This document shows positions 31,476-64,000 of a DNA stretch of 64,000 nt, piece by piece. Within the stretch, counting starts at the first letter, position 1, and each line of letters begins with the position of its first letter. The stretch covers positions 25,170 through 89,169 of the forward strand of contig JAGVBZ010000014.1 of assembly GCA_020059465.1 (NCBI GenBank). The letters are read 5' to 3'. The stretch comes from Brevinematales bacterium. Lineage in GTDB: Bacteria > Spirochaetota > Brevinematia > Brevinematales > GWF1-51-8. The translations under genes were made by a program, and so were the position numbers. The notes under the pieces were generated by a model. It saw nothing but the letters and a program-made list of their open reading frames with translations, made no database searches and was not told where the DNA came from.

Positions 31476-31871
31476 GCTGCGCACGCTAGCCCCGACCGTT
31501 GCGCGGGCTAACCCCATTACGTAAAAGCGCGAACGGATGAATGCTTAGCCTGCGACGTTTATAAAGTCTGCCGTTAGTGTGTACAGCACCTTTGCATGAC
31601 GGTATGCCCTCGCAATAAGTACCGTAGTTACCCGTTGACAACCCGTGATGCGAGTGATATGTCATAGTGAGCTTGCCGAACTATGACTGATACAATATCT
31701 GCGGTAATGGGTTTAGCCATGTGCGGTGGCTAACGCTGATATTGGAGTAAAATATCCGAACATGGGCTATGTCCTTATCCTATGCATCCGCTTGATATCG
31801 GGATTAGTATGCGCAGCACGTTGACAGGAAACGGGACGCCCGATATAATATTCGCTTCTGCGAGGCTTAAT

Positions 31872-48972: not shown

Positions 48973-49049
48973 CCCCGGCATATGCATAGGCTTCAGCCCC
49001 CGCCTGTCCGAAAAAATTTATTCTTTCCGTATAAAATACATCCTTCCGC

Positions 49050-49078
49050 TTGACGAAAACGGTATTATATATTATAAT
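49050..49078 (+). promoter_or_regulatory. sigma70-type promoter (TTGACG-17-TATAAT)
   Basis: Reads cTTGACGaaaacggtattatatatTATAATac, about 25 nt upstream of the AGGAGG Shine-Dalgarno and ATG 49105. Confidence 0.55.
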
Positions 49079-49104
49079 ACTCTAATATGATACAGGAGGC
49101 TTTC

Positions 49105-50685
49105 ATGGAATTTAGTATCGTTAATCTTTTGATCGCGTTCGGAGGGGGAATACTTTCATTTGTATCCCCATGCGTTCTGCCGCTTATTCCGATGTATCTC
49201 GCGTACATGACCGGAGTTTCGGTAAAAGACCTGGATACCGATAAAAAACCCATAAAAAAAGCGCTCCTGAACTCCATTTTCTTCGTTATCGGGTTTACGG
49301 TGATTTTTACGATATTCGCGTCAGTCTTCTATATTATCTTCGATAATCTCGGGGGCGTACGGATATGGGTGGACAGAGCTGTCGCGCTGATCCTGATCGT
49401 CTTTGCTCTCCATGTAATGGGGGTCATTACGATTCCGTTCCTGAACTACGAGGCGAGAATGAAAGCCGACGCGAAGAAAGACCCGTCGATCATCTCGTCT
49501 TTTATCATGGGTATCGTGTTCGGCGCGGGATGGACCCCGTGTATCGGGCCTATCCTGAGCGGGATTTTGATGACAGCGACCGATTCTGGAAACATGTTAG
49601 GCGCGGTTATCATGCTGATAGTCTATTCCCTCGGCCTCGGTGTTCCTTTTATCCTGACCGGAGTAGCGACAAAGACTCTCCTTTCGCTCTTTAAATCGAT
49701 CAAGAAACATATGAAGGCTGTGGAGATTATCAGCGGTATATTCCTGATAGGGATAGCCTTGTTTATCGCGATACCGACGTTCCTCCCGAAGGCTGAAACC
49801 GCTGTCGAGAACGGGAAACCCGCCGACGCGAAAAGCGCGATCGATTTCACGGGTGTCGACCTGATGACGGGAAAAACCGTGAAACTATCCGATTACAGCG
49901 GAAAAGTGGTGCTGGTCAATTTTTGGGCGACATGGTGCGACCCGTGCCGCGCCGAAATACCCGACCTGATTGCGCTCCAGAACAGGTATTCCAACGATCT
50001 TGTCATTATCGGCATATCGATAGATAATACCGTAGACCCCGTAGTCGGATATGTAAAGGAAGCGGGCATCCAGTATCCTGTCATCATGCAGGTTCCGGGT
50101 ATGGAAAAAGGATACGGAGATATTACCGGAGTACCGACCAGTTTTATCATCGACCGTGACGGTAATCCCGCGAAGAAGTTCGTAGGCGCGCGTTCGATGG
50201 AACAGTTCGAGGAACTGCTGATGCCGTATATCAAGTCCGTCACTTCAAATATTGCGCCGCAGGCCCAGGCCGCAAACCTCGCGCCGGATTTTACGATCAA
50301 TAATCTGCTGAACGGGCAGAATATCTCTCTGTCGCAGTATAAAGGAAAGGTCGTATTTGTGAACTTCTGGGCGACATGGTGTCCGCCCTGCCGTGCGGAA
50401 ATCCCGGCGTTCATCAGGCTTCAGTCCGAGATGAAAGACAAGTTTCAGATTATCGGCGTATCGGTGGATACCATCGGAGCGGCGGCCGTAAAAGATTTCG
50501 CGCTGTCGATGAATATCAATTATCCGGTCGGGATAGGCGATTATAACCTGACCCAGCAATACGGCGGGGTCGCCGCAATTCCCACCACCGTGATTGTAGG
50601 AACGGACGGTACGATAGTAGGAAAAGTAGTTGGATCGAAGAGCTATGAAGAATTCAAGTCGATAGTATTGAAATACGCGAAATAG
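49105..50685 (+). CDS. CcdA/DsbD-beta-type membrane electron transporter fused to two TlpA-like thioredoxin domains
   Basis: CcdA motifs FVSPCVLPLIP and GWTPCIGPIL in a polytopic N-terminal half. Two redoxin domains follow, with VNFWATWCDPCRAEIP and VNFWATWCPPCRAEIP. Confidence 0.85.
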   Translation: MEFSIVNLLIAFGGGILSFVSPCVLPLIPMYLAYMTGVSVKDLDTDKKPIKKALLNSIFFVIGFTVIFTIFASVFYIIFDNLGGVRIWVDRAVALILIVFALHVMGVITIPFLNYEARMKADAKKDPSIISSFIMGIVFGAGWTPCIGPILSGILMTATDSGNMLGAVIMLIVYSLGLGVPFILTGVATKTLLSLFKSIKKHMKAVEIISGIFLIGIALFIAIPTFLPKAETAVENGKPADAKSAIDFTGVDLMTGKTVKLSDYSGKVVLVNFWATWCDPCRAEIPDLIALQNRYSNDLVIIGISIDNTVDPVVGYVKEAGIQYPVIMQVPGMEKGYGDITGVPTSFIIDRDGNPAKKFVGARSMEQFEELLMPYIKSVTSNIAPQAQAANLAPDFTINNLLNGQNISLSQYKGKVVFVNFWATWCPPCRAEIPAFIRLQSEMKDKFQIIGVSVDTIGAAAVKDFALSMNINYPVGIGDYNLTQQYGGVAAIPTTVIVGTDGTIVGKVVGSKSYEEFKSIVLKYAK

Positions 50686-50739
50686 AGACTGCCGTATGCC
50701 CGGCAGGTACGGAAGAACCGGACAAAAGTAAGTTTTTAG

Positions 50740-50767
50740 TTGAAATATTTTCGTGTTATGATATACT
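50740..50767 (+). promoter_or_regulatory. possible sigma70-type promoter (TTGAAA-16-TATACT)
   Basis: Reads agTTGAAAtattttcgtgttatgaTATACTtatc, upstream of AGGAGG and ATG 50800. Confidence 0.4.
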
Positions 50768-50799
50768 TATCATAGATTCAAATACTTCAGGAGGATTCT

Positions 50800-51801
50800 A
50801 TGAAAATCGACCGCAGATGGATGAAGGGAGTGTTATTAGCTACAGCGGGAATATTTTTTATCACCGGATTGGTTACGGCAAAATTCTGGAATAAGCCAAA
50901 AAAGGATAAGCCGAAAGATGACAAAGTGGATACGTCGAAATTAGCTGCCGATTTTAAGGCGACTGATGTGACTTCCGGTAAAAAAATAACTTTATCCGCA
51001 TATAAAGGTAAAGTGGTAGTACTCAATTTCTGGGCGACATGGTGTCCTCCCTGTGTAGGCGAGATTCCCGATCTGATCAAGCTGAACAAGACATACGGAG
51101 ATAAACTTGTCGTACTTGGCGCATCGGTTGATAACGGTCCTGATGTGGCGAAGGATTTTGTTAAGAAGAACAAAGTCGATTTCCCTGTGTTTATGGCCGA
51201 TAGTGCGATGCAAAAAGCTTACGGAGGAATACCCAGCATACCCACTACATTTATTATCAACGCGAATGGCGAGATAGTTGAAAAAATCGTCGGCGGAAAT
51301 AAGTACGATGTGTTCGTAAAAAAGGTAAAACCTTATCTGACAGAAAATATCGTCCCTACTCCTCCTACCCCCGATAAACCCGATACCGATGCTAAAAGCA
51401 AGTATGACTTCAAGGGACAGGACGTAATCAACGGGAAAAATGTTTCCCTGTCCGATTATAAGGGAAAGCCGGTAATAGTCAATTTCTTTGCAACCTGGTG
51501 CGGCCCCTGCGTGAGCGAAATTCCGGGATTTGTCAATCTTCAGAAGAAATATGACGGAAAGATTCAATTTATCGGTCTTTCGGTTGACGATGAATCGGGC
51601 GTAGTAAAGAAATTCATCAAGAATAAGGGTATCAATTTCCCGGTCATCATGAGTAAATCTGAGATCGAATCGGCGTACGGCGGTGTTTCCTCTATCCCGG
51701 TTACGGTTATACTGGACGGTAAGGGAAATCTGATCGAAAAGATCGTCGGCGGTATATCCGAAAGTGTAATGGAAAGTAAAATAAAGAAAGCGATCAAGTA
51801 A
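50800..51801 (+). CDS. membrane-anchored protein with two TlpA-like thioredoxin domains
   Basis: N-terminal TM helix, then LNFWATWCPPCVGEIP and VNFFATWCGPCVSEIP domains. Confidence 0.85.
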   Translation: MKIDRRWMKGVLLATAGIFFITGLVTAKFWNKPKKDKPKDDKVDTSKLAADFKATDVTSGKKITLSAYKGKVVVLNFWATWCPPCVGEIPDLIKLNKTYGDKLVVLGASVDNGPDVAKDFVKKNKVDFPVFMADSAMQKAYGGIPSIPTTFIINANGEIVEKIVGGNKYDVFVKKVKPYLTENIVPTPPTPDKPDTDAKSKYDFKGQDVINGKNVSLSDYKGKPVIVNFFATWCGPCVSEIPGFVNLQKKYDGKIQFIGLSVDDESGVVKKFIKNKGINFPVIMSKSEIESAYGGVSSIPVTVILDGKGNLIEKIVGGISESVMESKIKKAIK

Positions 51802-51821: not shown

Positions 51822-51850
51822 GGGCCGTCCTTCGATAGGGCGGCCTTTTT
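51822..51850 (+). terminator. rho-independent terminator
   Basis: gggccgtcc-ttcgata-gggcggcc followed by ttttt, immediately after the stop at 51801. Confidence 0.6.
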
Positions 51851-52005: not shown

Positions 52006-52034
52006 TTGACAGACGTATTATTATTTGATAATAT
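52006..52034 (+). promoter_or_regulatory. sigma70-type promoter for the Mrp/Mbx-like operon (TTGACA-17-TAATAT with TGn)
   Basis: Reads aTTGACAgacgtattattattTGaTAATATatat. A GAGGAG Shine-Dalgarno precedes GTG 52064. Confidence 0.5.
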
Positions 52035-52063: not shown

Positions 52064-52543
52064 GTGAAGTATATTGTGAAATTTTTCACAGCTTTCATCC
52101 TTTGCTTGGCGGTTTACTTTGTTTTCGCGGGAAATTTTGAGCTGGAAGAACTGATCGCCGGGGGTGTGGTGTCCCTTATCGGAGCTATCGCAATCATGAA
52201 CTTTTTCGATATCAGCGTGAAGGTGCTCAACCCGGTACGCTGGTTCTGGATGATCGTGTACATCCCGTTCTTCCTGAAAGAAATGATCAAGGCGAATTTT
52301 CATATCGCGGGGATCGTACTGAATCCCAAACTTCCTATTCATCCTACGGTAAAACGCGGCAGGATGAAGGTTGTTAACGCGGGCGCGAGAATGCTTCTCG
52401 CGAACTCGATCACGCTGACTCCCGGCACTCTTTCGGTCGATATGAAGAATGACGAGCTCGAGATTCATTGTGTCGATACCGCCGAATCGGCGGAGCAGAT
52501 CATGGCGCCGTTCGAGAAACATATCCGCCGTATCGCGGACTAA
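52064..52543 (+). CDS. Mrp/Mnh antiporter subunit E-like (MbxA position)
   Basis: LLANSITLTPGTLSVD signature of MnhE. GTG start. Confidence 0.8.
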   Translation: MKYIVKFFTAFILCLAVYFVFAGNFELEELIAGGVVSLIGAIAIMNFFDISVKVLNPVRWFWMIVYIPFFLKEMIKANFHIAGIVLNPKLPIHPTVKRGRMKVVNAGARMLLANSITLTPGTLSVDMKNDELEIHCVDTAESAEQIMAPFEKHIRRIAD

Positions 52544-52582
52544 AGATTTTTATGTTCGATAATAGTTCGATTTGAGGTTATA

Positions 52583-52840
52583 ATGGAAATAGTATTCGCG
52601 ATTCTTTTCGCGTTTTTCGCGGTTTCCCTTTCGCTCGGTATTTTCGCGCTGATCCGTCTCAAGCATCCGGTCGAGAAAATGGTTTCTCTCGACGTACTGA
52701 CTACCCTGATTACCGCAGTGCTTCTGATTACCGCGGCGCTCACTGGCAATTCGTTCATTCTTGATATTGCCATGATCTACGCGGTGCTGTCGTTCGGGGC
52801 GGTTCTTGTCGTTGCGCGTTACCGTGAGGGAGGTTTCTGA
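52583..52840 (+). CDS. Mrp/Mnh antiporter subunit F-like (MbxB position)
   Basis: 85 aa with three TM helices. SLDVLTTLITAVLL...LDIAMIYAVLSFGAVLVVARY resembles MrpF. Confidence 0.75.
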   Translation: MEIVFAILFAFFAVSLSLGIFALIRLKHPVEKMVSLDVLTTLITAVLLITAALTGNSFILDIAMIYAVLSFGAVLVVARYREGGF

Positions 52841-53175
52841 TGATCGTCATGAAAATTATCGCGTTCGTATTTTTCTTTATCGGCGCGTTTTTTATCTTCG
52901 TCGGTACACTCGGTATCGTGCGTATGCCCGACGTGTATAACAAACTGCAGGCCGGAACCAAGGCAACCACTATGGGGTTTCTTTCCGTATGCGTAGGACT
53001 GATCTTTTTCGAGCCCGCGTGGATAATCAAAGCCCTTGTGATCGCGGGGTTTGTCGTACTGACCAACCCGATCGGCAGTCACGCCCTTGCGCGCGCCGCC
53101 AAAAACTCCGGGTTGCCGTTCGCGGACGATCGGGATAAACCCTCATTGAAGAAAGATGGGGAGGCGAAGAAATGA
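52840..53175 (+). CDS. Mrp/Mnh antiporter subunit G-like (MbxC position)
   Basis: GTLGIVRMPDVYNKLQAGTKATTMG and NPIGSHALARAA are MnhG signatures. Confidence 0.8.
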   Translation: MIVMKIIAFVFFFIGAFFIFVGTLGIVRMPDVYNKLQAGTKATTMGFLSVCVGLIFFEPAWIIKALVIAGFVVLTNPIGSHALARAAKNSGLPFADDRDKPSLKKDGEAKK

Positions 53176-53441
53176 CCGCGTTTATTATCATAATCGGAGC
53201 TGTGATCTGCGCGGGCGGAATCGCGGTATTATTCGTCCGTTCGCTCAAATCCGCGGCGCTTATCACCGGAATAATCAGCCTCATCGCCGCGCTCCTTTTC
53301 GTGCTGATGAAAGCGTATGACGTCGCTATCACGGAAGCGGCGATCGGAGCGGTGCTTTCCACCGCCCTGTACTTTTTCGCGTTCCACCGCCTCGAGGAGG
53401 ACGGTCTGAAGTCCGGGAAGGGGGAAAGCGATGAAAACTAG
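53172..53441 (+). CDS. DUF4040/MbhD-like small membrane subunit
   Basis: 89 aa with three TM helices. DVAITEAAIGAVLSTALYF resembles the MnhB N-terminal/MbhD module. Confidence 0.6.
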   Translation: MTAFIIIIGAVICAGGIAVLFVRSLKSAALITGIISLIAALLFVLMKAYDVAITEAAIGAVLSTALYFFAFHRLEEDGLKSGKGESDEN

Positions 53442-54201
53442 GCACCAGTCGCTGATCGACATCGCCGCATTGGTATTCCTCGGTATCGCGGTTTACCTGA
53501 TCGCGTCCGCACTGACAGAAACATCCGGCGGCGGTAAAGGAATTAATTCCTCAGAACTGAATAAGCGAGTATCGTACCGTTATATCATAAAATCGGTGAA
53601 CCCGTCGGCAAAACCCGAAGTCAAATGGGGCGCAACGGGATATGAGGAGAGCAGCGCGAATATTGTGACCTCGATAGTCGTGAATTATCGCGGGTTCGAT
53701 ACGCTGGGCGAGGTGCTCGTACTGTTCGCGTCATCCGCGGCGGTCAGTCTCCTGATCCGAAAGCGTTCTCCGAAGAAGGTGATGCCGCCGACCGAGATTA
53801 TGACATCGGCAGTACCGGTCGTCAATCTGCTTGTCTTTATCCTCGGCGCGTTCATTATCCTGCACGGTCATCTGACGCCGGGTGGGGGTTTCCCCGGAGG
53901 CGCGGTGATCGCGACTGGGGTGATCCTTGTATCGCTCGTGTTCCGTAAGGCGTTCCGTCCGTCGATGTACCTGATGCTCGAAAGCATCGCGGGGATGGGC
54001 ATCCTGATCGTCGGGCTTCTCGGCATGGTCAATTCGGATTACTTCCTGCAGGATTTCCTTCCCGCCGGAACTATCGGTAATCTATTCTCAAGCTATTTTG
54101 CTACCATACTTTACGTACTGATCGGCGTCAAGGTCGCGGTAGAGATTTCGAATATCGGCTTTCATTTTATCAGCGAAAGTATCGGGGAGGAGGCCGTATG
54201 A
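53431..54201 (+). CDS. MnhB/MbhE-like membrane subunit
   Basis: ANIVTSIVVNYRGFDTLGEVLVLF is the MnhB-domain signature. Confidence 0.75.
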   Translation: MKTRHQSLIDIAALVFLGIAVYLIASALTETSGGGKGINSSELNKRVSYRYIIKSVNPSAKPEVKWGATGYEESSANIVTSIVVNYRGFDTLGEVLVLFASSAAVSLLIRKRSPKKVMPPTEIMTSAVPVVNLLVFILGAFIILHGHLTPGGGFPGGAVIATGVILVSLVFRKAFRPSMYLMLESIAGMGILIVGLLGMVNSDYFLQDFLPAGTIGNLFSSYFATILYVLIGVKVAVEISNIGFHFISESIGEEAV

Positions 54202-54578
54202 ATCCGGGTAACGTTTTCCTGATTACCGCAGGCGCGGTAATGACTATCGGGGTGTTCGGCATCCTGACCCGCAGTAATATTATCAAGATACTGCTTTCGA
54301 TAAATATCCTCCAGACCGGCGTGAACCTTCTGATGATCGCGTTGGGATACAAGGAGGGCGCGGCCGCGCCGATTATCACCCAGCAGGTGACGAGCGCGGC
54401 GGCGATGGTCGATCCGCTCCCGCAGGCTCTCGTGCTGACTTCCATAGTCATCGCGTTCGGGACTACCGCGGTAGGCCTGGTGATCTGCCTGAATTATTTT
54501 CATACCCATAAATCGCTCGAGGTTCATTCGCTCGGTAACGAGGAACGGGAACATCAGCAGAAAGAGGTGGTCGAGTGA
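54198..54578 (+). CDS. MnhC/NuoK-like membrane subunit (MbxG position)
   Basis: GVFGILTRSNIIKILLSINILQTGVNLLMIALGY resembles MrpC/NuoK. Confidence 0.8.
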   Translation: MNPGNVFLITAGAVMTIGVFGILTRSNIIKILLSINILQTGVNLLMIALGYKEGAAAPIITQQVTSAAAMVDPLPQALVLTSIVIAFGTTAVGLVICLNYFHTHKSLEVHSLGNEEREHQQKEVVE

Positions 54579-56107
54579 AAGGTTTAAACCCCACACTGTT
54601 CCTTATACTGCCGCTGATAGCGGCGTTTCTCCTCCCGCTCGGAACAATTATTCATAAACGTTTCGGGAAACTCCTGAATGTGGTCACGTACGGAATCGGT
54701 ATCGCTATCGGGATCACCCTGCTCATGCCGACCCTGCTGACCGGAGGGACTGTCATCCAGATGGGCGGATGGCCCGCGCCGTACGGGATCGTACTCTACC
54801 TCGGCCCGTTGGCGCTCTGCGCAGGTATAATGATCTACCTGATCGCGCTCCTGATCGAGATCAATGATATAAATAAGTCACGGACGACGTACTTCCACCT
54901 GCTGTTCAATCTGTTCATCTTTGCGTCAATAGCGATGCTGATGACGTCCGACCTGTTCAATATGTTCGTAATGATGGAAATAGGAAGTATCGCAGTTGCG
55001 GGTATGGCATCGTCCGCGAGTATGCGGATGGGTTCGCGCGGCGGTTTCAAATATATCGTCATGAGCGGGCTGGTGTCGATGCTGATGCTGGCCGCAATCG
55101 GCCTCCTGTACTCCGCGACCGGAACACTGAATATCGCGCATCTCGCGTCCCGTACGTCCGACGTGCTCAACCCGTCGTTCGGGTTCATCGTGGGGCTGGG
55201 TCTGATGTTCGCGATGTTTTTCGAGACCGAGCAGTTCCCGTTCAATTCATGGGTGCCTGAAATCTACGAGGGCGCTCCGTCCTCGCTGACCGCCGCGATA
55301 TCGGGTATCGGCGGAATTGCCGCTGTGGGGGTATTCGGGAGGATTATCTTCACCCTGATACAGGGAGGCAGTATTTTCTACGGTATCTTCCCGAAACTCA
55401 GTCTGATTATATTCATAGTAGCGATAGCGAGCGTCCTGATAGGCGAGATCGCCGCGTTCAACGAGCAGAACCTCAAGAAGATGCTCGGCTTCTCGACAGT
55501 CGCGCAGTTCGGGCTGATCCTGATGGCGTTCGCGGCAGGCGGGCAGAACGGCGCGCTCGCCGGAATCTACCTTGTCCTGTCGCATACGGTCGCGAAACCC
55601 GCGCTTCTTTTTATCGCGGGATTCTTTTCGAAGGCGTCGGATAAGGGTAACTGGAAGGATATGAAGGGTATCGGGCGGAGGTTTCCGTTCCTCGGCGGTG
55701 CGTTCATCGCGCTGTCGCTGTCGATCATGGGGGTACCGATGTTCTTCGGGTTCTGGGGTAAGCTCGAGCTTCTTCAGACTCTGATATCCGGCAATATTTT
55801 AAGCAAGATCGCGTTCGGCGCGGTATTGCTGGGCGCTGTCTTCGAGGGGATTTACCTTCTCAGGGTGGGGCATTCGTTCTTCGAGAAGCCCGACGGCGCC
55901 GATGTGAAGAAATTCGACCCGAAGGGCGCGTTTATGACCGCGATTCCCGTACTGATCCTCGCGTTGATCGTTGTGGTGCTCGGGGTCTATCCCCAGAGCA
56001 TCGTCTGGTCGTTACAGAAAATCGCCGCCGATCTGGTGGATCGGACGCAATATATAGCTCATATCCTGCCGAACCTGATACCGGCAGTCCCGGGAGGCGG
56101 TCTATGA
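54575..56107 (+). CDS. MrpD/NuoN/NuoM-type proton-conducting antiporter-like subunit (MbxH position)
   Basis: 510-aa polytopic protein with the FNSWVPEIYEGAPS and MLGFSTVAQFG motifs typical of this family. Confidence 0.85.
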   Translation: MKGLNPTLFLILPLIAAFLLPLGTIIHKRFGKLLNVVTYGIGIAIGITLLMPTLLTGGTVIQMGGWPAPYGIVLYLGPLALCAGIMIYLIALLIEINDINKSRTTYFHLLFNLFIFASIAMLMTSDLFNMFVMMEIGSIAVAGMASSASMRMGSRGGFKYIVMSGLVSMLMLAAIGLLYSATGTLNIAHLASRTSDVLNPSFGFIVGLGLMFAMFFETEQFPFNSWVPEIYEGAPSSLTAAISGIGGIAAVGVFGRIIFTLIQGGSIFYGIFPKLSLIIFIVAIASVLIGEIAAFNEQNLKKMLGFSTVAQFGLILMAFAAGGQNGALAGIYLVLSHTVAKPALLFIAGFFSKASDKGNWKDMKGIGRRFPFLGGAFIALSLSIMGVPMFFGFWGKLELLQTLISGNILSKIAFGAVLLGAVFEGIYLLRVGHSFFEKPDGADVKKFDPKGAFMTAIPVLILALIVVVLGVYPQSIVWSLQKIAADLVDRTQYIAHILPNLIPAVPGGGL

Positions 56108-57999
56108 TCTGGACGGATTATATCCTCTTTTTAAATATCGCCGTACCCGTTGCGGTCGGCATAATCTCGCTCTTATTCTTCGGATGGGCGAAAAAAATCC
56201 AATGGATACTTTTTGCCCTGACAGTCGCGGTGCAGGCGTTCTTCGCGGTCTCTATGTTCGGCATGCCCGCGCATACGGAGACGATCTCCCTGCCGATTAC
56301 CGTGATGAACCTGAACCAGCTCGAACTGACGGTGCGGAACGGCGGGCTTGGTATGCTTTTCTTCCTGATTACCGTTGTCGTGACCGTAGTCATTTCAATG
56401 TTCTCACTCTCATATAACGATAAAGACCATGCGACGGCTATCGCGCCTTTATGGACGATGCTGATGGGCGCGAACGCGGGGATATTCTTCTCCGGGGACT
56501 GGGTGACATTCCTGCTCGCGTGGGAGCTGATGGGATGGACGTCGTTCTTCATCATCTCGCACGGGCGCGAGCGTTCCGGGAAGGCGGGGATGTACTACTT
56601 CGCGCAGTCGATGGTCGGGACTGCCGCTCTGCTGGCATTCGTGTTCATCGGGGTCGCGAACACCGGGTCGTTCGCCGTAAAAAATACGATCGCGTTCTAT
56701 ACCGGGCAATGGGCCTCCAATCCCGCGCTCGTGACAACCGCCGCGATTCTGCTCGTGCTGACATTCTTTACGAAATCGGCGGTATTTCCGTTCTTCATGT
56801 GGCCGTCGAAAGCCCACGCGGAGGCGCCGGACGATTTCTCGGCGTTCCTCTCGGGTATTATGATAAAATACGGCGTATTCGGTATGATCGTATTCCTCCT
56901 TCCGCTGTTTAGCGGGTATAACGGGCCGATGGTGTTCGACTCGCCCGTGTTCCTGTTCGTCGTCGGTGTTATCGGGATGTTTACCGCGCTATGGGGGACT
57001 CTCCACGCGATACGCGAGAACGATATGAAGCGGCTGATGGCGCATTCCACGGTATCGAATATCGGGTTTATACTGACCGCGTTATCGATAAATACAGCGC
57101 TCGGAATCGCCGCCGCCGTGTTCCACACGTTCAATCATATGATATTCAAGAGCAGTATCTTCCTCTCGATGGGGTCGGTCAAGTACCGCACCGGGGAGCG
57201 GGATATGCATAAACTCGGCGGGATGGCGTACAGGATGCCGCTGACGTTCTTTGTGTTCCTGCTGGGCATCATCGCTGCCGCGGGTATTCCCCCGATGAGC
57301 GGGTTCGCGTCGAAATGGATGGTGTTCCAGGCGATGTTCGAGAAACAATGGCTCCTTCCCGCGATAGTAGGGTTCTTCGCGTCCACCGCGGCGTTCCTCT
57401 ATCTTTACCGCGGACTGCACGCAATCTATCTCGGACAGCTTTCGCCGCGCTTCGAAAAGGTCAAGGAAGCCCCGTTCCTGCAGGCGGCGGCGCAGGCTAT
57501 CCTGATGCTCGCGGTGTTCGCCGTGGGGCTATTCCCCGGACTGGTACTGATACCGGTAAACAACACCCTCGCGGAACTCGGGATGAAGCCGCTAGAACTG
57601 GATTTATACAATATCAAGGGAGTGACCAGTTCGCTGAATATCACTTCGATAGGGCTGGCGTTCATGGGGGCGTTCGCGATAGTGTTCGTGCTCTTCCTGA
57701 TCGGGAAGAAGCGTCGCTATGTCAAGCAGATGGACACCTATACGTCCGGCGAAACCCCGTCCGACTGGGGTGTGAACGAGGATAAACTGCATTACGCATA
57801 TAACTTTTACGAACCGATAGAGAAGTTTTTCGAGCCGTTCCTGAACGGGTTCTCGATGGATAAGCTGTTCACCCGTATCGCGTACGAGGCGAAACGCGTC
57901 AGCAACGCGGTGCAGAAATGGTTTAACAGCCCTCAGACGGGTATTATCCTTCTCGGATTTCTCGCGGTGCTCGCATTGGCGCTCGGGAGGCTGTTATGA
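56104..57999 (+). CDS. MrpD/NuoL-type antiporter-like subunit with C-terminal extension (MbxH' position)
   Basis: 631 aa with WELMGWTSFF, FFMWPSKAHAEAPDDFSAFLSG and LMAHSTVSNIG motifs, plus an extra C-terminal helical segment. Confidence 0.85.
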   Translation: MIWTDYILFLNIAVPVAVGIISLLFFGWAKKIQWILFALTVAVQAFFAVSMFGMPAHTETISLPITVMNLNQLELTVRNGGLGMLFFLITVVVTVVISMFSLSYNDKDHATAIAPLWTMLMGANAGIFFSGDWVTFLLAWELMGWTSFFIISHGRERSGKAGMYYFAQSMVGTAALLAFVFIGVANTGSFAVKNTIAFYTGQWASNPALVTTAAILLVLTFFTKSAVFPFFMWPSKAHAEAPDDFSAFLSGIMIKYGVFGMIVFLLPLFSGYNGPMVFDSPVFLFVVGVIGMFTALWGTLHAIRENDMKRLMAHSTVSNIGFILTALSINTALGIAAAVFHTFNHMIFKSSIFLSMGSVKYRTGERDMHKLGGMAYRMPLTFFVFLLGIIAAAGIPPMSGFASKWMVFQAMFEKQWLLPAIVGFFASTAAFLYLYRGLHAIYLGQLSPRFEKVKEAPFLQAAAQAILMLAVFAVGLFPGLVLIPVNNTLAELGMKPLELDLYNIKGVTSSLNITSIGLAFMGAFAIVFVLFLIGKKRRYVKQMDTYTSGETPSDWGVNEDKLHYAYNFYEPIEKFFEPFLNGFSMDKLFTRIAYEAKRVSNAVQKWFNSPQTGIILLGFLAVLALALGRLL

Positions 58000-58892
58000 T
58001 GGAGGTATTGAACGTAATCGGCTACTCGTTCTTTGTGATGGCGGCCGGATTATTATATATGGGTATCGGGCGAAAGGTCGCGGCGCGTCTGCACAGGCGT
58101 TACGGGCCTCCGGTATGGCAGTGTTATGTCGACGTTGTCAAGTGCTTCTCGCGGAAGAGCATCTCGCATAACTTCATCATGGACCTCGGTTCGATGATGG
58201 GGCTTTCGGGGCTATTAGGAGCGGCGATGTTCATCCCGATCGCGGGATTCCTGCCATTCCCGTCACAGGGCCCGATCATCGTCATCCTATATCTCATGCC
58301 GATCGGCTACCTCGGTATGGCGATGGGCGTATCGGCGTCGGGCAATCCCCTTGCTGCGATCGGTATCGGAAGGGCGCTGACCCTGATGATCGGATACGAG
58401 GTACCGTTTGCGACCATCGTACTATCGTTTATCGCGACCTATTCCAGCACCGGGCTGGTGCCGCTTCAGGCGGTTCAGGCGGGCGGGATCGCGAACTGGC
58501 ACATGATGACCATGCCGTTCGGGTTTGCGGCGGCTTTGATCGCGCTGATGGGTATGCTCGGTAAGAAGCCGTTCGATACGATGATCGCGCCGTCGGAGAT
58601 CGCGTCCGGGCCGATGGTCGAGCTTTCGGGGAAATTCCTCGGGCTTGCGTTCCTCCAGCACGCCGCCGCGATATTTGTCGAGACCGGCTTGATCGTGTTG
58701 TTGTTTCTTGGCGGGGCGTCGAATGTCTTTGAGTTTATCGGGAAACAGGCCGCCGTATATATCGTGATGGCATCGCTCAGCGAGTTGTGGGCGCGTTACA
58801 GGGTAGAGCAGGCGACCAAGTTCCTGTGGATTTCCGCCGGATCGCTTGCGCTTGTCCAACTCGTTATCAACATGATAATCGGGAGGAAATAA
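57996..58892 (+). CDS. NuoH/HycD-like membrane subunit (MbxM position)
   Basis: GRKVAARLHRRYGPP and SGPMVELSG resemble complex I subunit 1 and formate hydrogenlyase subunit 4. Confidence 0.8.
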   Translation: MMEVLNVIGYSFFVMAAGLLYMGIGRKVAARLHRRYGPPVWQCYVDVVKCFSRKSISHNFIMDLGSMMGLSGLLGAAMFIPIAGFLPFPSQGPIIVILYLMPIGYLGMAMGVSASGNPLAAIGIGRALTLMIGYEVPFATIVLSFIATYSSTGLVPLQAVQAGGIANWHMMTMPFGFAAALIALMGMLGKKPFDTMIAPSEIASGPMVELSGKFLGLAFLQHAAAIFVETGLIVLLFLGGASNVFEFIGKQAAVYIVMASLSELWARYRVEQATKFLWISAGSLALVQLVINMIIGRK

Positions 58893-59449
58893 TGCTGAAA
58901 ATCAGCAGGGAAGAAATTATAGACGGGAAGTTCGAGCGGGTGCTGAACTTTTTCCGAAGCCGAAGCCTCTGGATGCTGTACTACTGTACCGGATGCGGCG
59001 CGGTGGAACTTCCGCCGACGATGACCAGCCGTTTCGATATGGAGCGTTTCGGGATCAGCCCGATGGCCACTCCGCGTCAGGCGGACATTTTATTGGTTAC
59101 GGGTTATGTGTCGGTAAAAACGTTAAAAAGAATCGTTTATTCGTACGAGCAGATGCCGGAGCCGAAGTGGGTCGTAGGGTTCGGGTCGTGCCCTGTCAAC
59201 GGCGGTATTTACTGGAACAGCTACGCGACCATCAACCAGCTTGATAAGTATATCCCGGTGGATATCAGTATCCCCGGATGCATGCCGCGCCCGCAGGCTG
59301 TGATCGACGGGCTTCTTTCGCTGATGGATTCGATCAAGAAGGGCGAGGCGGTGGGCTACAAGAAGTACAGGATGAATAACGATTGGTATAAAAAGAACCA
59401 GCGCGAGATACTTGAACGGACGAAACCGGTGCTGGGAGGAAAGAAATGA
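58892..59449 (+). CDS. NuoB/[NiFe]-hydrogenase small-subunit-like Fe-S subunit (MbxJ position)
   Basis: The ATG overlaps the previous stop (TAATG). Cluster ligands are YYCTGCGAVE, GSCPVNGG and PGCMPRP. Confidence 0.85.
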   Translation: MLKISREEIIDGKFERVLNFFRSRSLWMLYYCTGCGAVELPPTMTSRFDMERFGISPMATPRQADILLVTGYVSVKTLKRIVYSYEQMPEPKWVVGFGSCPVNGGIYWNSYATINQLDKYIPVDISIPGCMPRPQAVIDGLLSLMDSIKKGEAVGYKKYRMNNDWYKKNQREILERTKPVLGGKK

Positions 59450-59931
59450 CGAACAGGGATATGGCGGCCAAGATCGCAGGGGGATGGTCGGACGCGGAAG
59501 CGGTGCCCCGTTTCCATAACCAGATAGAGGTCACATGCGGCAATCCCGACACGATAGCGGGAATGCTCCATTATATTCAGTCCCTCGGATTCGAGCACAT
59601 GTCGAACCTGACCTGTGTGGATTGGCTTGAGGAGAACCGTTTCGACGTCACCTATAACCTCTGGTCGTACAAGTATAAGATTCAAGCGACAGTGAAAGCG
59701 GGAATCGACCGCGGCGAACCGAAAATCCCGACGGTCATGGATGTATGGCCGCAGGCGCAGGCGTACGAGCAGGAAATTCACGAAATGTTTGGGGTGGATT
59801 TTATCGGCAATCCCGACCTTTCGTCCCTATTCCTGCATAATTGGAAGGATATCCCGCCTCTGCGGAAGGATTTCGATACCGAGGCGTATTCTAAAGAGGC
59901 CTACGGCGCGCAACGTAATAAAGAGGTATAG
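59446..59931 (+). CDS. NuoC-like subunit (MbxK position)
   Basis: LTCVDWLEENRFDVTYNLWS...QAYEQEIHEMFGVDFIGNPD is the 30-kDa subunit signature. Confidence 0.8.
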   Translation: MTNRDMAAKIAGGWSDAEAVPRFHNQIEVTCGNPDTIAGMLHYIQSLGFEHMSNLTCVDWLEENRFDVTYNLWSYKYKIQATVKAGIDRGEPKIPTVMDVWPQAQAYEQEIHEMFGVDFIGNPDLSSLFLHNWKDIPPLRKDFDTEAYSKEAYGAQRNKEV

Positions 59932-59933
59932 CT

Positions 59934-61082
59934 ATGGAACCCGTATTTTACGAACTGACTAAACTCGCGCAGAACGACCAGTATACCACCTACGAGATGT
60001 TCTTCGGCCCGAACCACCCCGGCATGCACGGGAACTTCGGGTATGTTGTCGAGGCGGTAGGCGCGACCGTAGTGAAAGTCAGGGTGAACGCCGGACTCCT
60101 GCACCGCGGGTTCGAGAAGCTGATGGAGACCAAGGGATGGTTCCAGAACCTGAGCCTGATACCGCGTATCTGTGTGGTCGATCCCGACCCGAACGAGGTC
60201 GCGTACTGTATGGCGGCGGAACGGCTCTGCGGGATGGAAATCCCCGAGAAGGCGAAATACCTCCGCAGCCTGACGCTCGAAATGAGCCGGCTCACGTCGC
60301 TCCTGATGGGGATGGGCGCGCTCGGCGCGATGATGGGGCTTTACAGCTCGATGTACCGGATGATGACCGACCGCGATTATGTCCTCGACCTGTTCGAATG
60401 GCTCACCGGAGCGCGTATTTATCATATCTATAATGTTCCCGGCGGTGTCCGCAGGGATATCCCCGACGGATTCCTCGCGAAGCTGACGGAAGTCCTCGAT
60501 ACGTTGGAGTATAACCTGAAGGAATGGGACAACCTCGTATTCGAGAACCCTGTAGTGCATAAGCGTCTCACAGGGATAGGATATATCACCGCCGAAGAAG
60601 CGGTGCATTACGGCCTAGTCGGGCCGAATCTCCGCGCGACCGGGTTTCTCGCCGATGTGCGGAAGGACGACCCGTATGCCGCGTATCCGTACCTCGATTT
60701 CGAGACCCCTGTCACTCATGGAGGGGACGCGCTCGCGAGAGCGGTTCAGGTACGGAAAGAGTATGAGATGTCTATTAAACTGGTACGCCAGATTATAAAA
60801 AAGATGCCGAAATCGAAGGAAATCCGCCTGAAGGCTGGGAATACCCTGAAGTTTGTCGTACCTCCCGGCGATACATACGCGCGTGTGGAGTCGTCGAAGG
60901 GCGAGTACGGGTATTATGTCGTATCGGACGGCGGACTGAAACCGTACCGGGTATCGGTACGCGGGCCGTCGCTTCCGGCGGGGCTGACGCTCTGCCATAA
61001 GCACCTGCCGGGCATGGATATTTCGGATGTGGCGATATGGATGGCGAGTTACGCCGTATGTCCGCCGGATATAGACCGCTAA
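59934..61082 (+). CDS. NuoD/[NiFe]-hydrogenase large-subunit homologue lacking a complete NiFe site (MbxL position)
   Basis: FGPNHPGMHG, HRGFEKL and ESSKGEYGYYVVSDG motifs. The N-terminal site reads RICVVD and the C-terminus reads VCPPDIDR. Confidence 0.85.
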   Translation: MEPVFYELTKLAQNDQYTTYEMFFGPNHPGMHGNFGYVVEAVGATVVKVRVNAGLLHRGFEKLMETKGWFQNLSLIPRICVVDPDPNEVAYCMAAERLCGMEIPEKAKYLRSLTLEMSRLTSLLMGMGALGAMMGLYSSMYRMMTDRDYVLDLFEWLTGARIYHIYNVPGGVRRDIPDGFLAKLTEVLDTLEYNLKEWDNLVFENPVVHKRLTGIGYITAEEAVHYGLVGPNLRATGFLADVRKDDPYAAYPYLDFETPVTHGGDALARAVQVRKEYEMSIKLVRQIIKKMPKSKEIRLKAGNTLKFVVPPGDTYARVESSKGEYGYYVVSDGGLKPYRVSVRGPSLPAGLTLCHKHLPGMDISDVAIWMASYAVCPPDIDR

Positions 61083-61166
61083 GTCCTGCGGACGGCTAAT
61101 CCCGATATCGCGCGTGTGTTTAAGGATATATTAATAGCCCGTGATGAGGGGCACGATATAAGCATG

Positions 61167-61714
61167 GTCATCCTGAGCCGGTCGAAGGATGCCACTGCGA
61201 GCGAAAGCGAAGCAGCCGGTAGATTGCTTCGTCACACTGTTCCTCGCAATGACAGGGGATTTCCCTGAGTGTACCTCGGCAATGCTCGGCGTGACGGACG
61301 GGATGACTGGTGGGATGAATGAGAATTGTCATCCTGAGCCGGTCGAAGGATGTCACTGCGGGACGCGCAGAGGTGATGCAGTCGGTGATGACAGATTGCT
61401 TCGTCACTCTGTTCCTCGCAATGACAGGGGATTTCCCTGAGTGTAACTCGACAGGCTCGGCGGGACGGATGGGATGACTAGCGGGATGAATGAGAATTGT
61501 CATCCTGAGCCGGTCGAAGGATGTTACTGCGAGCGAAAGCGAAGCAGCCGGTAGATTGCTTCGTCACTTTGTTCCTCGCAATGACAGGGGATTTCCCAGA
61601 GTGTATCTCGGCAATGCTCGGCGTGACGAATGGGATGACTGGCGGGATGAATGAAAATTGTCATCCTGAGCCGGTCGAAGGATGTCACTGCGAGCGAAAG
61701 CGAAGCAGTCTGAG
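61167..61714. repeat. tandem array (3.3 copies) of a 161-171-bp hairpin-forming REP/MITE-like repeat
   Basis: Units start at 61167, 61328, 61499 and 61660 with gtcatcctgagccggtcgaaggatg. Each holds the imperfect palindrome gtcactgcgagcgaaagcgaagca...tgcttcgtcac..ttcctcgcaatgac. Confidence 0.9.
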
Positions 61715-61758
61715 AAATATGTATGATTTTTCACGTGTTACCGATATAGGAGGAACGC

Positions 61759-63606
61759 ATGAGCGGTCCGGGTAAAAAAAGTTTCTTCTCACCGTTTAAA
61801 CTGCTGAAAAATTTTCTAAAAAAGCCCCTCACCGTGCGGGTCCCGTTCGAGGATATCGATACGCTCGGACGCATAGGCGCATCGCCGGAATACCGGGGGT
61901 TTCATTATAACGACCACGAACTCTGTATCGGGTGCGGGACATGCCAGGAAATCTGTACGACCGACGCTATCCGGATGGTCGAGGGCGCGAATATCGGTGA
62001 GGGTAAGCTCGGTAAGGTGCCGGAGATCGATTACGGGCGGTGCTGTTACTGCGGGTTCTGTGTGGATATGTGCACCACGGGGTCATTGTCGATGAGCCGT
62101 CATTATCTCGGTAATTACCCGACTCCGGTCGATAAGATCGGGAACGCCGAAGTGGACGATCTGAAGGAACATTTTATATGGACGCCGGAGATGCAGTATT
62201 CCGACGATCCGGGGCATATGGCGTCCGACGATCAGGTGTGGCTCGACCTCGAACGTATCCCGATGACGGAACTGTCCCCGGAAGAGCGTTGGGACAGCTT
62301 TATCGAAATAGTGCGGGGCTTCACGAAGGACGAGGCGCTGAGAGAGGCGTCGAGATGCGTCGAATGCGGTGTGTGTGTCGAGACCTGCCCGGCGAATATG
62401 CGTGTTCCGCAGTATATTCACGCGATATGGGACGGCGACCTCGAACAGTCGGTACGCGAGATGTACAGTGAAAACTCCCTGCCCGGTATCTGCGGGAGGG
62501 TATGTACGCATAAATGCGAGACAGTGTGTTCCATAGGGCACCGCGGCGAGCCGGTCGCGATACGATGGCTGAAGCGCTACGCGGTAGAGAGTCTACCGGT
62601 CGATAAGGTCGCGGAGATCGCGGGTGAGATGACGGCGAAGACCGCCGGGAAGAAGAACCGGGTCTCAATCATCGGGTCCGGCCCTGCGGGTTTGTCCGCC
62701 GCGTATTATCTCGCGGGGATGGGATATCAAATTACGGTGTACGATTCGAATAAAAAGACCGGCGGCGTGATGCGTTACGGTATACCGAAGTACCGCCTGC
62801 CGGACGAGCACCTTGACCGCGATGTCGAGGTTATCAAGCGCATGGGCGTCGAGTTCAAGATGGGCGTACGTGTCGGGAAGAAAATAAAATTCGCCGATAT
62901 CAAGGCGCAAAGCGACGCGGTTATGATCGCGACAGGGTATGATTTGCCCCGTTCGACCGGGATAACGGGTATCGACGGGAAAAACTGCTATCAGGCATTT
63001 GATCTCCTCAAGGCGATATCCGCCGGAGAGGATGTCCCTCTCGGTAAAAAGATACTCGTAATCGGCGGCGGAAACGTCGCGTTCGATATCGCCCGTTCGC
63101 TCGCGCGTATCCAGCGGAGTAAAACGAAAAAAGTCGGCCTGACGATGGTATGCCTCGAAAGCGGAAGGGAGATTCCCGCGGATGTCGAGGAGATCAGGGA
63201 AGCGATCGATGAAGGGGTTGTCCTGTATGACGGACGGATGCCGAAGGAAGTGGTGTTCGAACGCGGCAGCCTGAAAGGACTGCGTCATATCAAATGCGTC
63301 AGCGTATTTGACGAGCAGGGTCATTTCAACCCGGTCGGCGACGAGAGCGATTCGGAGGTGTTCAACACGGATATGATAGTCGAAGCGGTGGGGCAGAAGC
63401 CCGATTTCAGTTATCTGCCCGACGATGCGATAAAGAAGATAGAGATTATCAGAGGAAAGATACTGACCGACGAACAGGGAGGCACGGCGCTGCCATGGCT
63501 TTTCGCGGCGGGTGATATCGTGCACGGGCCGGATATTATCCATGCCGTCCGTGACGGGCATAACTCGGCGAAAGCGATAGACGCTTATCTTTCCAAGGGG
63601 AAGTAA
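61759..63606 (+). CDS. fusion of a NuoI/MbxN-like 2x[4Fe-4S] ferredoxin domain with a GltD/SudA-like NAD(P)H-dependent flavoprotein
   Basis: CIGCGTCQEIC and CCYCGFCVDMC. The GltD N-terminal cluster region follows (RCVECGVCVETCP...ICGRVCTHKCETVC). Then FAD (IIGSGPAGLSAAYYL) and NAD(P)H (VIGGGNVAFDIA) Rossmann motifs and AAGDIV. Confidence 0.85.
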   Translation: MSGPGKKSFFSPFKLLKNFLKKPLTVRVPFEDIDTLGRIGASPEYRGFHYNDHELCIGCGTCQEICTTDAIRMVEGANIGEGKLGKVPEIDYGRCCYCGFCVDMCTTGSLSMSRHYLGNYPTPVDKIGNAEVDDLKEHFIWTPEMQYSDDPGHMASDDQVWLDLERIPMTELSPEERWDSFIEIVRGFTKDEALREASRCVECGVCVETCPANMRVPQYIHAIWDGDLEQSVREMYSENSLPGICGRVCTHKCETVCSIGHRGEPVAIRWLKRYAVESLPVDKVAEIAGEMTAKTAGKKNRVSIIGSGPAGLSAAYYLAGMGYQITVYDSNKKTGGVMRYGIPKYRLPDEHLDRDVEVIKRMGVEFKMGVRVGKKIKFADIKAQSDAVMIATGYDLPRSTGITGIDGKNCYQAFDLLKAISAGEDVPLGKKILVIGGGNVAFDIARSLARIQRSKTKKVGLTMVCLESGREIPADVEEIREAIDEGVVLYDGRMPKEVVFERGSLKGLRHIKCVSVFDEQGHFNPVGDESDSEVFNTDMIVEAVGQKPDFSYLPDDAIKKIEIIRGKILTDEQGGTALPWLFAAGDIVHGPDIIHAVRDGHNSAKAIDAYLSKGK

Positions 63607-64000
63607 ATGGAAGGTTTGGACGCTCTGGTACTCGCGTTCCAGATGGAAGTGAACGGCGCGGATTTCTACCATCAGTTTGCGGAAAAGGTATCCGATCCGG
63701 AGATGAGCGCGATTCTCGATGAACTGGCGAAGATGGAGGAAGAACATATCACCTATATTTCCGGGAAAATCGCGGAGATCAGGGCGAAGTATAAGCAATT
63801 ACCGGGAATACCCGAACTGGGGATAGATTTATATCAGCGGCGATTGGATACGATGAAAATCGAGAAGCACCTGATCGAAGAGAATCTTGGGAAATACTTC
63901 ATACTCCGTATGGCATATTATCTGGAAAAAGATTTTTTTGATTTTTATACCAGAGCGGCCGATAAGCACGGCGGGGAAACGAAAGCTGTCTTCGAGCACC
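63607..64000 (+). CDS. rubrerythrin/ferritin-like domain protein (3' end outside window)
   Basis: ATG directly follows the TAA of the upstream gene. Manual translation gives MEGLDALVLAFQMEVNGADFYHQFAEKV...LAKMEEEHITYI...AYYLEKDFFDFYTRAA. It is absent from the track because it has no stop in the window. Confidence 0.7.
   Translation, partial: MEGLDALVLAFQMEVNGADFYHQFAEKVSDPEMSAILDELAKMEEEHITYISGKIAEIRAKYKQLPGIPELGIDLYQRRLDTMKIEKHLIEENLGKYFILRMAYYLEKDFFDFYTRAADKHGGETKAVFEH

Follow-up and report, generated by a model that had tools for sequence, protein, structure and literature searches.

We analyzed a 64,000-nucleotide (nt) stretch of the genome of a Brevinematales bacterium (GenBank assembly GCA_020059465.1, contig JAGVBZ010000014.1, positions 25,170 to 89,169 of the forward strand), hereafter referred to as the window, in which a plus-strand operon of genes related to Mrp antiporters and to complex I occupies positions 52064-63606. 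The original prediction, made from the sequence alone, had likened this operon to mbx of Pyrococcus. The core of that reading holds: judged by sequence comparison, the operon belongs with the Mrp-Mbx/MBS-type modules, and is neither mbh nor nuo. All 13 open reading frames (ORFs), which were taken from the ORF list and assigned by Pfam, are present on the plus strand at the coordinates given below and matched the expected families above curated cut-offs, in keeping with the MrpE/F/G, DUF4040, MnhB, MnhC/NuoK, antiporter and NuoH/B/C/D families named earlier. In the order A-B-C-D-E-G-H-H'-M-J-K-L-N, they are as follows (lengths in amino acids, aa; E-values follow Pfam families and PDB chains, where 6u8y denotes the MBS complex of Pyrococcus furiosus (P. 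furiosus) and 6cfw the membrane-bound hydrogenase, MBH):

52064-63606, plus strand: mbx operon, 13 genes
52064-52543, plus strand: mbxA, MrpE-like, 159 aa (Pfam MNHE, 6e-32; 6u8y_A, 8.7e-26, versus 6cfw_A, 1.4e-17)
52583-52840, plus strand: mbxB, MrpF-like, 85 aa (Pfam MrpF_PhaF, 3.9e-11)
52840-53175, plus strand: mbxC, MrpG-like, 111 aa (Pfam PhaG_MnhG_YufB, 7.5e-26)
53172-53441, plus strand: mbxD, MbhD/DUF4040-type, 89 aa (Pfam MbhD, 6.7e-17)
53431-54201, plus strand: mbxE, MbsE-type, 256 aa (Pfam MnhB and MbhE; 6u8y_E, 1e-37)
54198-54578, plus strand: mbxG, MrpC/NuoK-like, 126 aa (Pfam Oxidored_q2; 6u8y_G, 3.3e-23)
54575-56107, plus strand: mbxH, first antiporter-like subunit, 510 aa (Pfam Proton_antipo_M; 6u8y_H, 5.7e-62, over the full length)
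56104-57999, plus strand: mbxH', second antiporter-like subunit, 631 aa (Pfam Proton_antipo_M; 6u8y_X, 7.2e-64)
57996-58892, plus strand: mbxM, NuoH-like subunit anchoring the peripheral arm in the membrane, 298 aa (Pfam NADHdh, 2.9e-50)
58892-59449, plus strand: mbxJ, NuoB-like, 185 aa (Pfam Oxidored_q6; 6u8y_J, 2.6e-70)
59446-59931, plus strand: mbxK, NuoC-like, 161 aa (Pfam Complex1_30kDa, 2.7e-31; 6u8y_K, 9.8e-18)
59934-61082, plus strand: mbxL, NuoD/NiFe-large-subunit-like, 382 aa (Pfam Complex1_49kDa; 6u8y_L, 5.1e-105)
61759-63606, plus strand: mbxN, a fusion protein of 615 aa (Pfam Fer4_20, Pyr_redox_2 and Fer4)

Neighboring mbx genes overlap by 1-11 nt or are separated by 0-39 nt, the sole exception being a 676-nt gap between mbxL and mbxN that holds an array of a 161-nt repeat, so that the tight packing with one repeat-filled gap described earlier agrees with the ORF coordinates. 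The mbxA gene starts with GTG, preceded by a GAGGAG ribosome-binding site. The identity of the NuoB-like gene had also been read correctly; its start, however, is most likely the ATG at 58892 (the public gene call) and not the GTG at 58787. Our Pfam scan covered 56 ORFs of the window (a few long ORFs around 37.3-38.9 kb were left out), and the source contig (Ga0104751_1001095 of JGI metagenome sample 3300007351) was read for a further 10 kb past the end of the window. The scanned ORFs included no NuoE/F/G, NuoA/J or hyp family, as had been noted, and none of the missing complex I genes lies within the 10 kb downstream, where they might still have been encountered.

Ten subunits (A, E, G, H, H', M, J, K, L and the N-terminal domain of N) were compared with all solved structures. 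For all ten, the top PDB match was the cognate chain of P. furiosus MBS (6U8Y), well above MBH (6CFW) and complex I, which bears out the assignment to the Pyrococcus mbx arrangement rather than to mbh or nuo. For mbxM, for example, the values were 1.7e-44 for 6u8y_M, 1.9e-19 for 6cfw_M and 9e-11 for E. coli NuoH, and the comparators of mbxJ gave ~1e-34 (NuoB/PSST) and 2.9e-33 (6cfw_J). The L subunit separates these relatives equally well: Thermus Nqo4 (2fug_4) matched at 6.8e-66 and MbhL (6cfw_L) at 1.5e-35, with bit scores of 355 for MbsL, 226 for Thermus Nqo4 and 126 for MbhL, the last being the 53rd PDB match. The original prediction had called for a phylogeny of the L subunit, and in a neighbor-joining tree (distance-based, without support values, and with a fragment of Nqo4 as the single outgroup, so that relationships within Mbx are not resolved) the window protein, the homologs included and P. 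furiosus MbsL fall together, separated from Nqo4 by a long branch, which shows that L is not Nuo-like. Within this tree, again without support values, the window L groups with Brevinematales and Thermotogae.

The residues of the peripheral arm agree with this placement. The alignment of mbxJ with MbsJ runs without gaps over 161 residues and the CTGCG motif is identical and of the same length, with cysteines 32, 35, 100 and 130 of mbxJ equivalent to C25, C28, C93 and C123 of MbsJ. In MbsJ, where the CTGC loop is shortened, only three Cys residues are left to bind the proximal [4Fe-4S] cluster (PMC7684303), and at the level of sequence mbxJ is predicted to carry a proximal [4Fe-4S] cluster with the same MBS-type three-Cys motif. 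In mbxL, Cys80 (RICVVD) and Cys376 (VCPPDIDR) correspond to C85 and C385 of MbsL, whilst the other two NiFe ligand positions are Asp, so the NiFe site is not intact; the C-terminal CPPDIDR is identical to that of MbsL. At the positions of Y87 and H38 of Nqo4, mbxL has Val81 and His32, respectively, and the second of these positions is variable among L homologs (H, E, T, V or S in the motif columns of 45 homologs).

The membrane arm shows the same affinity with MBS. The MbhE-like and MnhB-like parts are joined in the single mbxE protein, as in MBS, whereas MBH has two chains (6cfw_F and 6cfw_E). The mbxH' protein could be aligned with MbsH' (6u8y_X, 618 aa) over residues 30-605, which takes in the C-terminal extension, and it retains equivalents of all five charged-axis residues (E128, K217, K248, H336 and K399). 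In MbsH', this extension forms transmembrane helices 15-16, Loop 1 and the lateral helix, and stands in for NuoA/J or MbhI (PMC7684303). The mbxH protein retains the equivalents of MbsH E138, E219 and K393, and has Ile248 at the position of K250 (the Lys of transmembrane helix 8) and Leu333 at that of H330, both in the central charged axis. A Lys at the K250 position is found in only about one-third of 31 bacterial H homologs, mostly from Gammaproteobacteria. These substitutions suggest that one pump may be inactive, or may work differently. We also observed that the reading frame holding H is ~1040 aa long in about half of the related loci (L003, L005, L007, L010-L012 and others); by sequence, H and H' appear to be fused into a single polypeptide in Bacteroidota, Cloacimonadota and related lineages.

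The last gene of the operon departs most from the archaeal model. It had been predicted to be NuoI-like, and this is true of residues 6-117, which form an MbsN/NuoI-type domain with two [4Fe-4S] clusters (6u8y_N, 7.6e-23). What had been missed is that, after a linker (residues 118-164), residues 165-615 form an NfnB/GltD-type flavoprotein domain with two Cys4 cluster motifs and Rossmann folds for flavin adenine dinucleotide (FAD) and NAD(P)H. The best PDB matches of this part are T. maritima NfnB (4ylf_B, 1.5e-79) and the large subunit of P. furiosus NfnI (5jca_L, 4.7e-71), followed by Stn/FDH-fused homologs and GltD (6s6s_G, 6e-46). Across 21 aligned full-length homologs, all 16 cluster Cys positions and both GxGxxG motifs show little or no variation. 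Since archaeal MbsN has only 208 aa, the flavoprotein is an addition in the bacterial form, and with it an NAD(P)H-reactive input/output module is present despite the absence of NuoEFG. The stretch "YRRT" of NfnB, whose position in this fold we take to be the binding site of the 2'-phosphate of NADPH, is aligned with "CLES" in mbxN (residues 465-468), of which Glu E467 is invariant in the fusion family. Based on this change, and following the general rule for Rossmann folds, we predict that mbxN prefers NADH over NADPH.

The fusion is common. We found more than 100 full-length homologs of mbxN, at 47-91% identity, including a T. maritima MSB8 protein of 615 aa that aligns with 99% of the query at 48% identity. 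When one genome per species was scanned, 598 related stretches were obtained; the best 80 were analyzed by tblastn with the 13 window proteins, and ~50 of these 80 loci encode the full-length fusion. Its carriers are Spirochaetota, Bacteroidota, Fermentibacterota, Cloacimonadota, Tenericutes/Izemoplasmatales, Thermotogae, Planctomycetota, Sumerlaeota and Verrucomicrobiota, as well as many sulfur-oxidizing Gamma- and Betaproteobacteria (Thiodiazotropha, Sedimenticola, Thiomargarita, Thioalkalivibrio, Gallionellaceae and Thiobacillaceae). The order A-B-C-D-E-G-H-H'-M-J-K-L-N is kept in every one of the ~30 loci with enough upstream DNA. These loci come from ~10 phyla, and include Alpha-, Beta- and Gammaproteobacteria, Spirochaetota, Thermotogae (where the gene order of locus L043 is identical to that of the window), Bacteroidota, Cloacimonadota, Planctomycetota and Tenericutes. 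The short length and the divergence of MrpF (B) presumably explain why tblastn detected it in three loci only.

The operon architecture is already published and is not a new kind of system, so the suggestion that the arrangement is unusual does not stand (PMC4758237; PMC9431562; PMC11636981). Operons resembling mbx with a gltD-related flavoprotein at the NuoI position, often followed by a rubrerythrin gene, were described in Thermotoga and in proteobacteria (PMC4758237). The MBX of T. maritima has 13 subunits, and its mbxA was induced 4.4-fold by S0 (Liang et al., PMC9431562). The architecture was also reported for Mesotoga (bioRxiv 10.1101/322537) and for the Riftia symbiont (PMC11636981).

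Around and within the operon lie several further features:

51822-51846, plus strand: terminator-like hairpin and T-run (10-bp stem with 7 GC pairs, TTTTCATCGT tail)
52006-52034, plus strand: sigma-70-like promoter match, TTGACA-17-TAATAT with an extended TG (a consensus match only)
61167-61708, plus strand: 161-nt unit repeated in tandem 3.3 times (86% matches), within the 676-nt gap (61083-61758)
63607-64000, plus strand: rubrerythrin-like (ferritin-like di-iron) gene, 166 aa in full, recognized from its translation and cut by the window end
Source contig locus L081, 13472-15577, minus strand, ~1.6 kb past the window end: 701-aa Fe-hydrogenase-like/chemotaxis protein

The hairpin closes an upstream thioredoxin-like gene and marks the upstream boundary of the operon. 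The TTGACA-17-TAATAT sequence, 30 nt 5' of mbxA, is the strongest promoter-like match of the region. Directly 5' of the operon are three consecutive thiol-disulfide oxidoreductase genes (48379-51801), encoding an AhpC/TSA-like protein, a 532-aa protein with a DsbD/CcdA transmembrane domain and two TlpA-like thioredoxin domains, and a double TlpA-like protein of 333 aa. The last of these is also found 5' of the operon in a close relative (L085, N 77% identical), and is absent from distant loci. We considered a functional tie of the trio to mbx and rejected it: upstream conservation is limited to L085, plus one weak match in L020, and the trio is therefore probably neighborhood only.

The 161-nt unit of the L-N gap is an assembly of short modules, including a hairpin (GTCATCCTGAGC-N4-CGAAGGATG) and TTGCTTCGTCAC..TGTTCCTCGCAATGAC. 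A relative with a 91% identical N has an L-N gap of 678 nt with a different mosaic of similar modules, and in a relative with a 77% identical N the gap is 173 nt, with a single hairpin. In the window and in both of these close relatives, ~30 nt immediately upstream of the start of N are conserved, and the GGAGG ribosome-binding site lies within them. Among the related loci compared, the hairpin motif is confined to the L-N gap. The module (TGTCATCCTGAGC-N4-CGAAGGATGACA) also occurs in at least 120 unrelated metagenome contigs (L086-L165 among our loci), with no conserved flanks and accompanied by recurring companions such as ...CTCAGTGTGAC, and it appears to be a very widespread family of short palindromic repeats. 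No Rfam match to the L-N repeats was obtained even at E<=1, a single unit folds no better than shuffled sequence (z-score -0.97), and no promoter-like site was found in the gap. We therefore discarded the idea of a structured or known RNA, with which the differing mosaics in relatives and the scattered module likewise disagree, in favor of promiscuous intergenic repeat DNA. From its sequence, we take the array to have grown at a place in the operon where such expansion is tolerated. By analogy with repetitive extragenic palindromic (REP) elements, it is conceivable that the repeats influence the relative stability of the A-L and N-rbr segments of the mRNA. Two ORFs of 83-84 aa within the array were dismissed as genes, as they match no Pfam family and are translations of the repeat. 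A second tandem repeat in the window (31264-31473; 2.1 copies of a 98-nt unit, 93% identity) has its start within the 3'-terminal ~20 nt of mfd (TRCF) and extends downstream.

The predicted extent of the operon is right for the 13 mbx genes and leaves out a continuation: a 14th co-directional gene, rubrerythrin-like, begins at 63607, its ATG abutting the mbxN stop codon, and the window end cuts through it. On the source contig, three rubrerythrin-like paralogs (166, 166 and 164 aa; 28-50% identical) lie 3' of N, two of which match Pfam Rubrerythrin. Reading their sequences, both E...ExxH di-iron motifs are kept in paralogs 1 and 3, and are partly lost in the middle one. A rubrerythrin-like homolog is also found directly 3' of N in another Brevinematales locus (L001). 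In other lineages a rubrerythrin domain is fused to N, giving proteins of ~748 aa (PF02915 in three of those among the matches listed; the extension is visible in two that were aligned). The trailing proteins probably have a protective role against oxygen or peroxide, or else provide an alternative outlet for electrons. Elsewhere in the window (33564-34328), a 254-aa fusion combines a GDT1-type cation/proton antiporter with a rubrerythrin (ferritin-like) domain.

Beyond the rubrerythrins come the minus-strand gene for the 701-aa protein and then fliL, fliM and fliN. The 701-aa protein combines ferredoxin-type clusters, the C-terminal domain of the Fe-hydrogenase large subunit and a methyl-accepting chemotaxis signaling domain, and this composition suggests a hydrogenase-like sensor of H2 or of redox state that feeds into chemotaxis. 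Its gene is kept in the close relatives L083 and L085.

The remaining scanned ORFs of the window include gidB, guaA, pnp, mfd, feoB, dapA, two-component proteins and thiol-disulfide oxidoreductases. GuaA shares 81% identity with its counterpart in "Spirochaetes bacterium GWF1_51_8" and 58-68% with those of several Brevinematales/Brevinematia metagenome-assembled genomes. The nearest mbx locus among the best 80 of the 598 stretches from species-representative genomes is that of an uncultured Brevinematales bacterium (L 75% and N 57% identical). Because both comparisons lead to Brevinematales, we take the host to be an uncultured Brevinematales-like spirochaete. On these identities the operon looks vertically inherited in that lineage. 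The host is probably a mesophile. Two other window genes may be recorded here. A 178-aa minus-strand ORF (11606-12142), located between a gene for a solute-binding protein and guaA, matches the HEPN_AbiU2 abortive-infection family (1.7e-13), and a 588-aa protein (31782-33548) consists almost entirely of ankyrin repeats, a make-up that is unusual in a free-living bacterium.

On balance, we lean towards the view that the operon encodes a 13-subunit, complex-I-like, ion-translocating sulfane sulfur reductase fed by NAD(P)H, probably NADH, and/or by ferredoxin. Its membrane arm consists of a Mrp-type Na+/H+ module (A, B, C, D, E and G), H, H' and the NuoH-like anchor M, with the lateral-helix extension of H' in place of NuoA/J or MbhI, and its peripheral arm of J, K, L and N. 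Electrons would pass from NAD(P)H to FAD, through the two clusters of the flavoprotein and the two MbsN-type clusters, to the proximal cluster of J, such that the fused flavoprotein would be a functional analog of NuoEFG; ferredoxin may dock as an additional donor. By homology with MBS, the final acceptor in the L/J/M chamber would most likely be sulfane sulfur (polysulfide), and conformational coupling via the three-loop system would drive export of H+/Na+ through H' and the Mrp module, with a possible contribution of H. In P. furiosus MBS, polysulfide is reduced at the three-Cys proximal cluster (PMC7684303).

Several considerations weigh against such a reductase. The first is energetic. The span from NADH to polysulfide is ~50-60 mV (standard, estimated from textbook potentials), which is barely enough for one ion per two electrons. 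With so small a span and NADH as the donor, a low stoichiometry and a reversible reaction are to be expected. Second, the fusion family is present in sulfur-oxidizing autotrophs, which have no obvious need for sulfur reduction, and therefore reverse operation, or another substrate, is possible. Third, pumping by H is uncertain because the equivalents of K250 and H330 are replaced by Ile and Leu, and the chemistry of the chamber may differ from that of MBS because His32 of mbxL has no counterpart in P. furiosus MbsL. Fourth, NfnB-type clusters are of very low potential in the Nfn enzyme, so that a simple linear wire is an assumption. Lastly, to our knowledge no bacterial Mbx complex has been purified, and a study of the Riftia symbiont lists MBX among the complexes whose function or direction in vivo is unknown (PMC11636981).

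A bolder extension of the proposal, to which we give tentative consideration and which we think rather doubtful, is that an "N-module" arose a second time, and independently, within the complex I superfamily in the form of the NfnB-type flavoprotein, which would make the enzyme an NADH-linked, possibly ferredoxin-confurcating, sulfur-reducing or reversible pump. If this were true, such a pump would be widespread in anaerobic bacteria and in sulfur-oxidizing symbionts, and the loss of central-axis residues from H in this lineage would fit a lower-energy donor.

Among the alternatives to a sulfane sulfur reductase, the one that survives best, though we consider it unlikely, is an Rnf-like, ion-translocating ferredoxin:NAD(P)+ oxidoreductase, as in the original "Mbx" hypothesis. 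Electrons would then flow from ferredoxin through the clusters of the N domain and the flavoprotein to NAD(P)+, or in autotrophs in reverse, with the ion gradient driving the reduction of ferredoxin. Homology of the fused domain to GltD and to the subunit of Nfn that reacts with NAD(P) speaks for this function, which has been proposed before (PMC4758237), including for Mesotoga (bioRxiv 10.1101/322537). Moreover, the genes of the Riftia symbiont are co-expressed with the ferredoxin-dependent reductive tricarboxylic acid (rTCA) cycle (PMC11636981). However, a path from ferredoxin through N to FAD would skip the strictly conserved cluster of J and the L/J/M chamber, which together form the energy-coupling site in all complex I relatives, and the archaeal enzyme that was first given such a role proved to be a polysulfide reductase (PMC7684303).

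An alternative complex I, namely an NADH:menaquinone oxidoreductase with the NfnB-like domain in place of the NuoEFG N-module, is in our opinion improbable. His32 of mbxL, which aligns with the quinone-binding residue His38 of Thermus Nqo4, would suit it, as would the Pfam assignment of L, J, K and M to complex I families and the similarly wide hydrophobic chambers of MBS and complex I (PMC7684303). Yet the residue at the His38 position varies among L homologs, as described above, the equivalent of Tyr87 is Val, J has the CxxC of MbsJ and not the tandem CC of quinone-reducing NuoB, and in the structure comparisons the subunits are closer to MBS than to Nuo.

We see a similarly small chance that the complex is a flavin-based bifurcating or confurcating one, with the FAD splitting or merging electrons between ferredoxin and the J-cluster/sulfur site, and NAD(P)H and ferredoxin being used together. 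That the fused domain is nearest to NfnB/NfnL, ahead of the non-bifurcating GltD, is in line with this possibility. On the other side, neither the scanned ORFs nor the 10 kb downstream yielded an NfnA-like partner (FNR-type, with a [2Fe-2S] cluster), and the NADPH-binding motif of NfnB is not conserved in mbxN. In GltD and in DPD, the same fold is a plain electron wire.

An energy-converting [NiFe] hydrogenase (Mbh/Ech) or a fragment of canonical Nuo is hardly credible and can be regarded as refuted at the sequence level: a weak match of Pfam NiFeSe_Hases at the N-terminus of L (E 0.0017, below the cut-off) and the general resemblance of the module to group 4 hydrogenases are outweighed by the replacement of two of the four NiFe cysteines by Asp, by the low rank of MbhL among the PDB matches of L, and by the absence of hyp and of NuoA/J/E/F/G from the scanned ORFs and the 10 kb downstream.

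Compared with its archaeal relatives, the window has the gene order of archaeal mbx, with M before J-K-L, two antiporter-like subunits, and E as a single MbhE+MbhF-like protein. The 13 subunit types are common to this operon and to that of P. furiosus MBS (formerly Mbx, 6U8Y; PMC7684303). The two are alike in the extension of H', the length of the CTGC motif in J, the two residual cysteines of L and its CPPDIDR end. They differ in that archaeal MbsN is a free-standing di-cluster protein of 208 aa fed by free ferredoxin, whereas the N of the window is a 615-aa flavoprotein fusion. Features seen in the window and not in MBS are an H without the K250 and H330 equivalents, the His of L at the Nqo4 H38 position, the rubrerythrin-like genes and the bacterial host.

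Also among the closest known systems are the MBX of T. maritima and other mbx-like operons, which share 13 subunits and the flavoprotein N with the window. The window differs in phylum (Spirochaetota, Brevinematales-like), and, relative to the mbx loci of Thermotoga and proteobacteria, in having three rubrerythrin paralogs instead of one or a fusion, and in its repeat-filled L-N gap. Flavoprotein-fused bacterial Mbx is common in genomes, and was found here in spirochaetes, Thermotogae, Bacteroidota, Cloacimonadota, Planctomycetota and many sulfur-oxidizing symbionts. To these the locus adds a clean and complete Brevinematales-like example, a possible candidate for expression, together with three pointers: the three-Cys motif of J, the NADH-type Rossmann signature and the degenerate axis of H.

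With the large subunit of NfnAB/NfnSL (4YLF_B, 5JCA_L), the C-terminal 450 residues of mbxN share the cluster motifs and the FAD and NAD(P)H Rossmann domains. In the window, however, this domain is tethered to an MbsN domain, "YRRT" has become "CLES", and an NfnA/NfnS-like FNR/[2Fe-2S] partner is missing from the scanned ORFs and from the 10 kb downstream. With complex I, the operon has in common the Q-module (B, C, D and I), the H anchor, the antiporter-like and NuoK-like subunits and, if the proposed electron path is right, an NAD(P)H-oxidizing flavoprotein at the tip of the Fe-S wire. Unlike complex I, that flavoprotein is of the FAD/NfnB type and not of the flavin mononucleotide (FMN)/NuoF type, J has CxxC in place of CC, L lacks Tyr87, and there is an extra Mrp E/F/G/B module. 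MBH (6CFW) likewise combines a Mrp module with a NuoH/B/C/D/I-like peripheral module, but it differs from the window in having one antiporter-like subunit, a four-Cys NiFe site, separate E and F, and the M gene after L. The Mrp-Mbx/MBS complexes, to which the operon of the window is closest, are considered intermediate between Mrp antiporters, membrane-bound hydrogenases and complex I.

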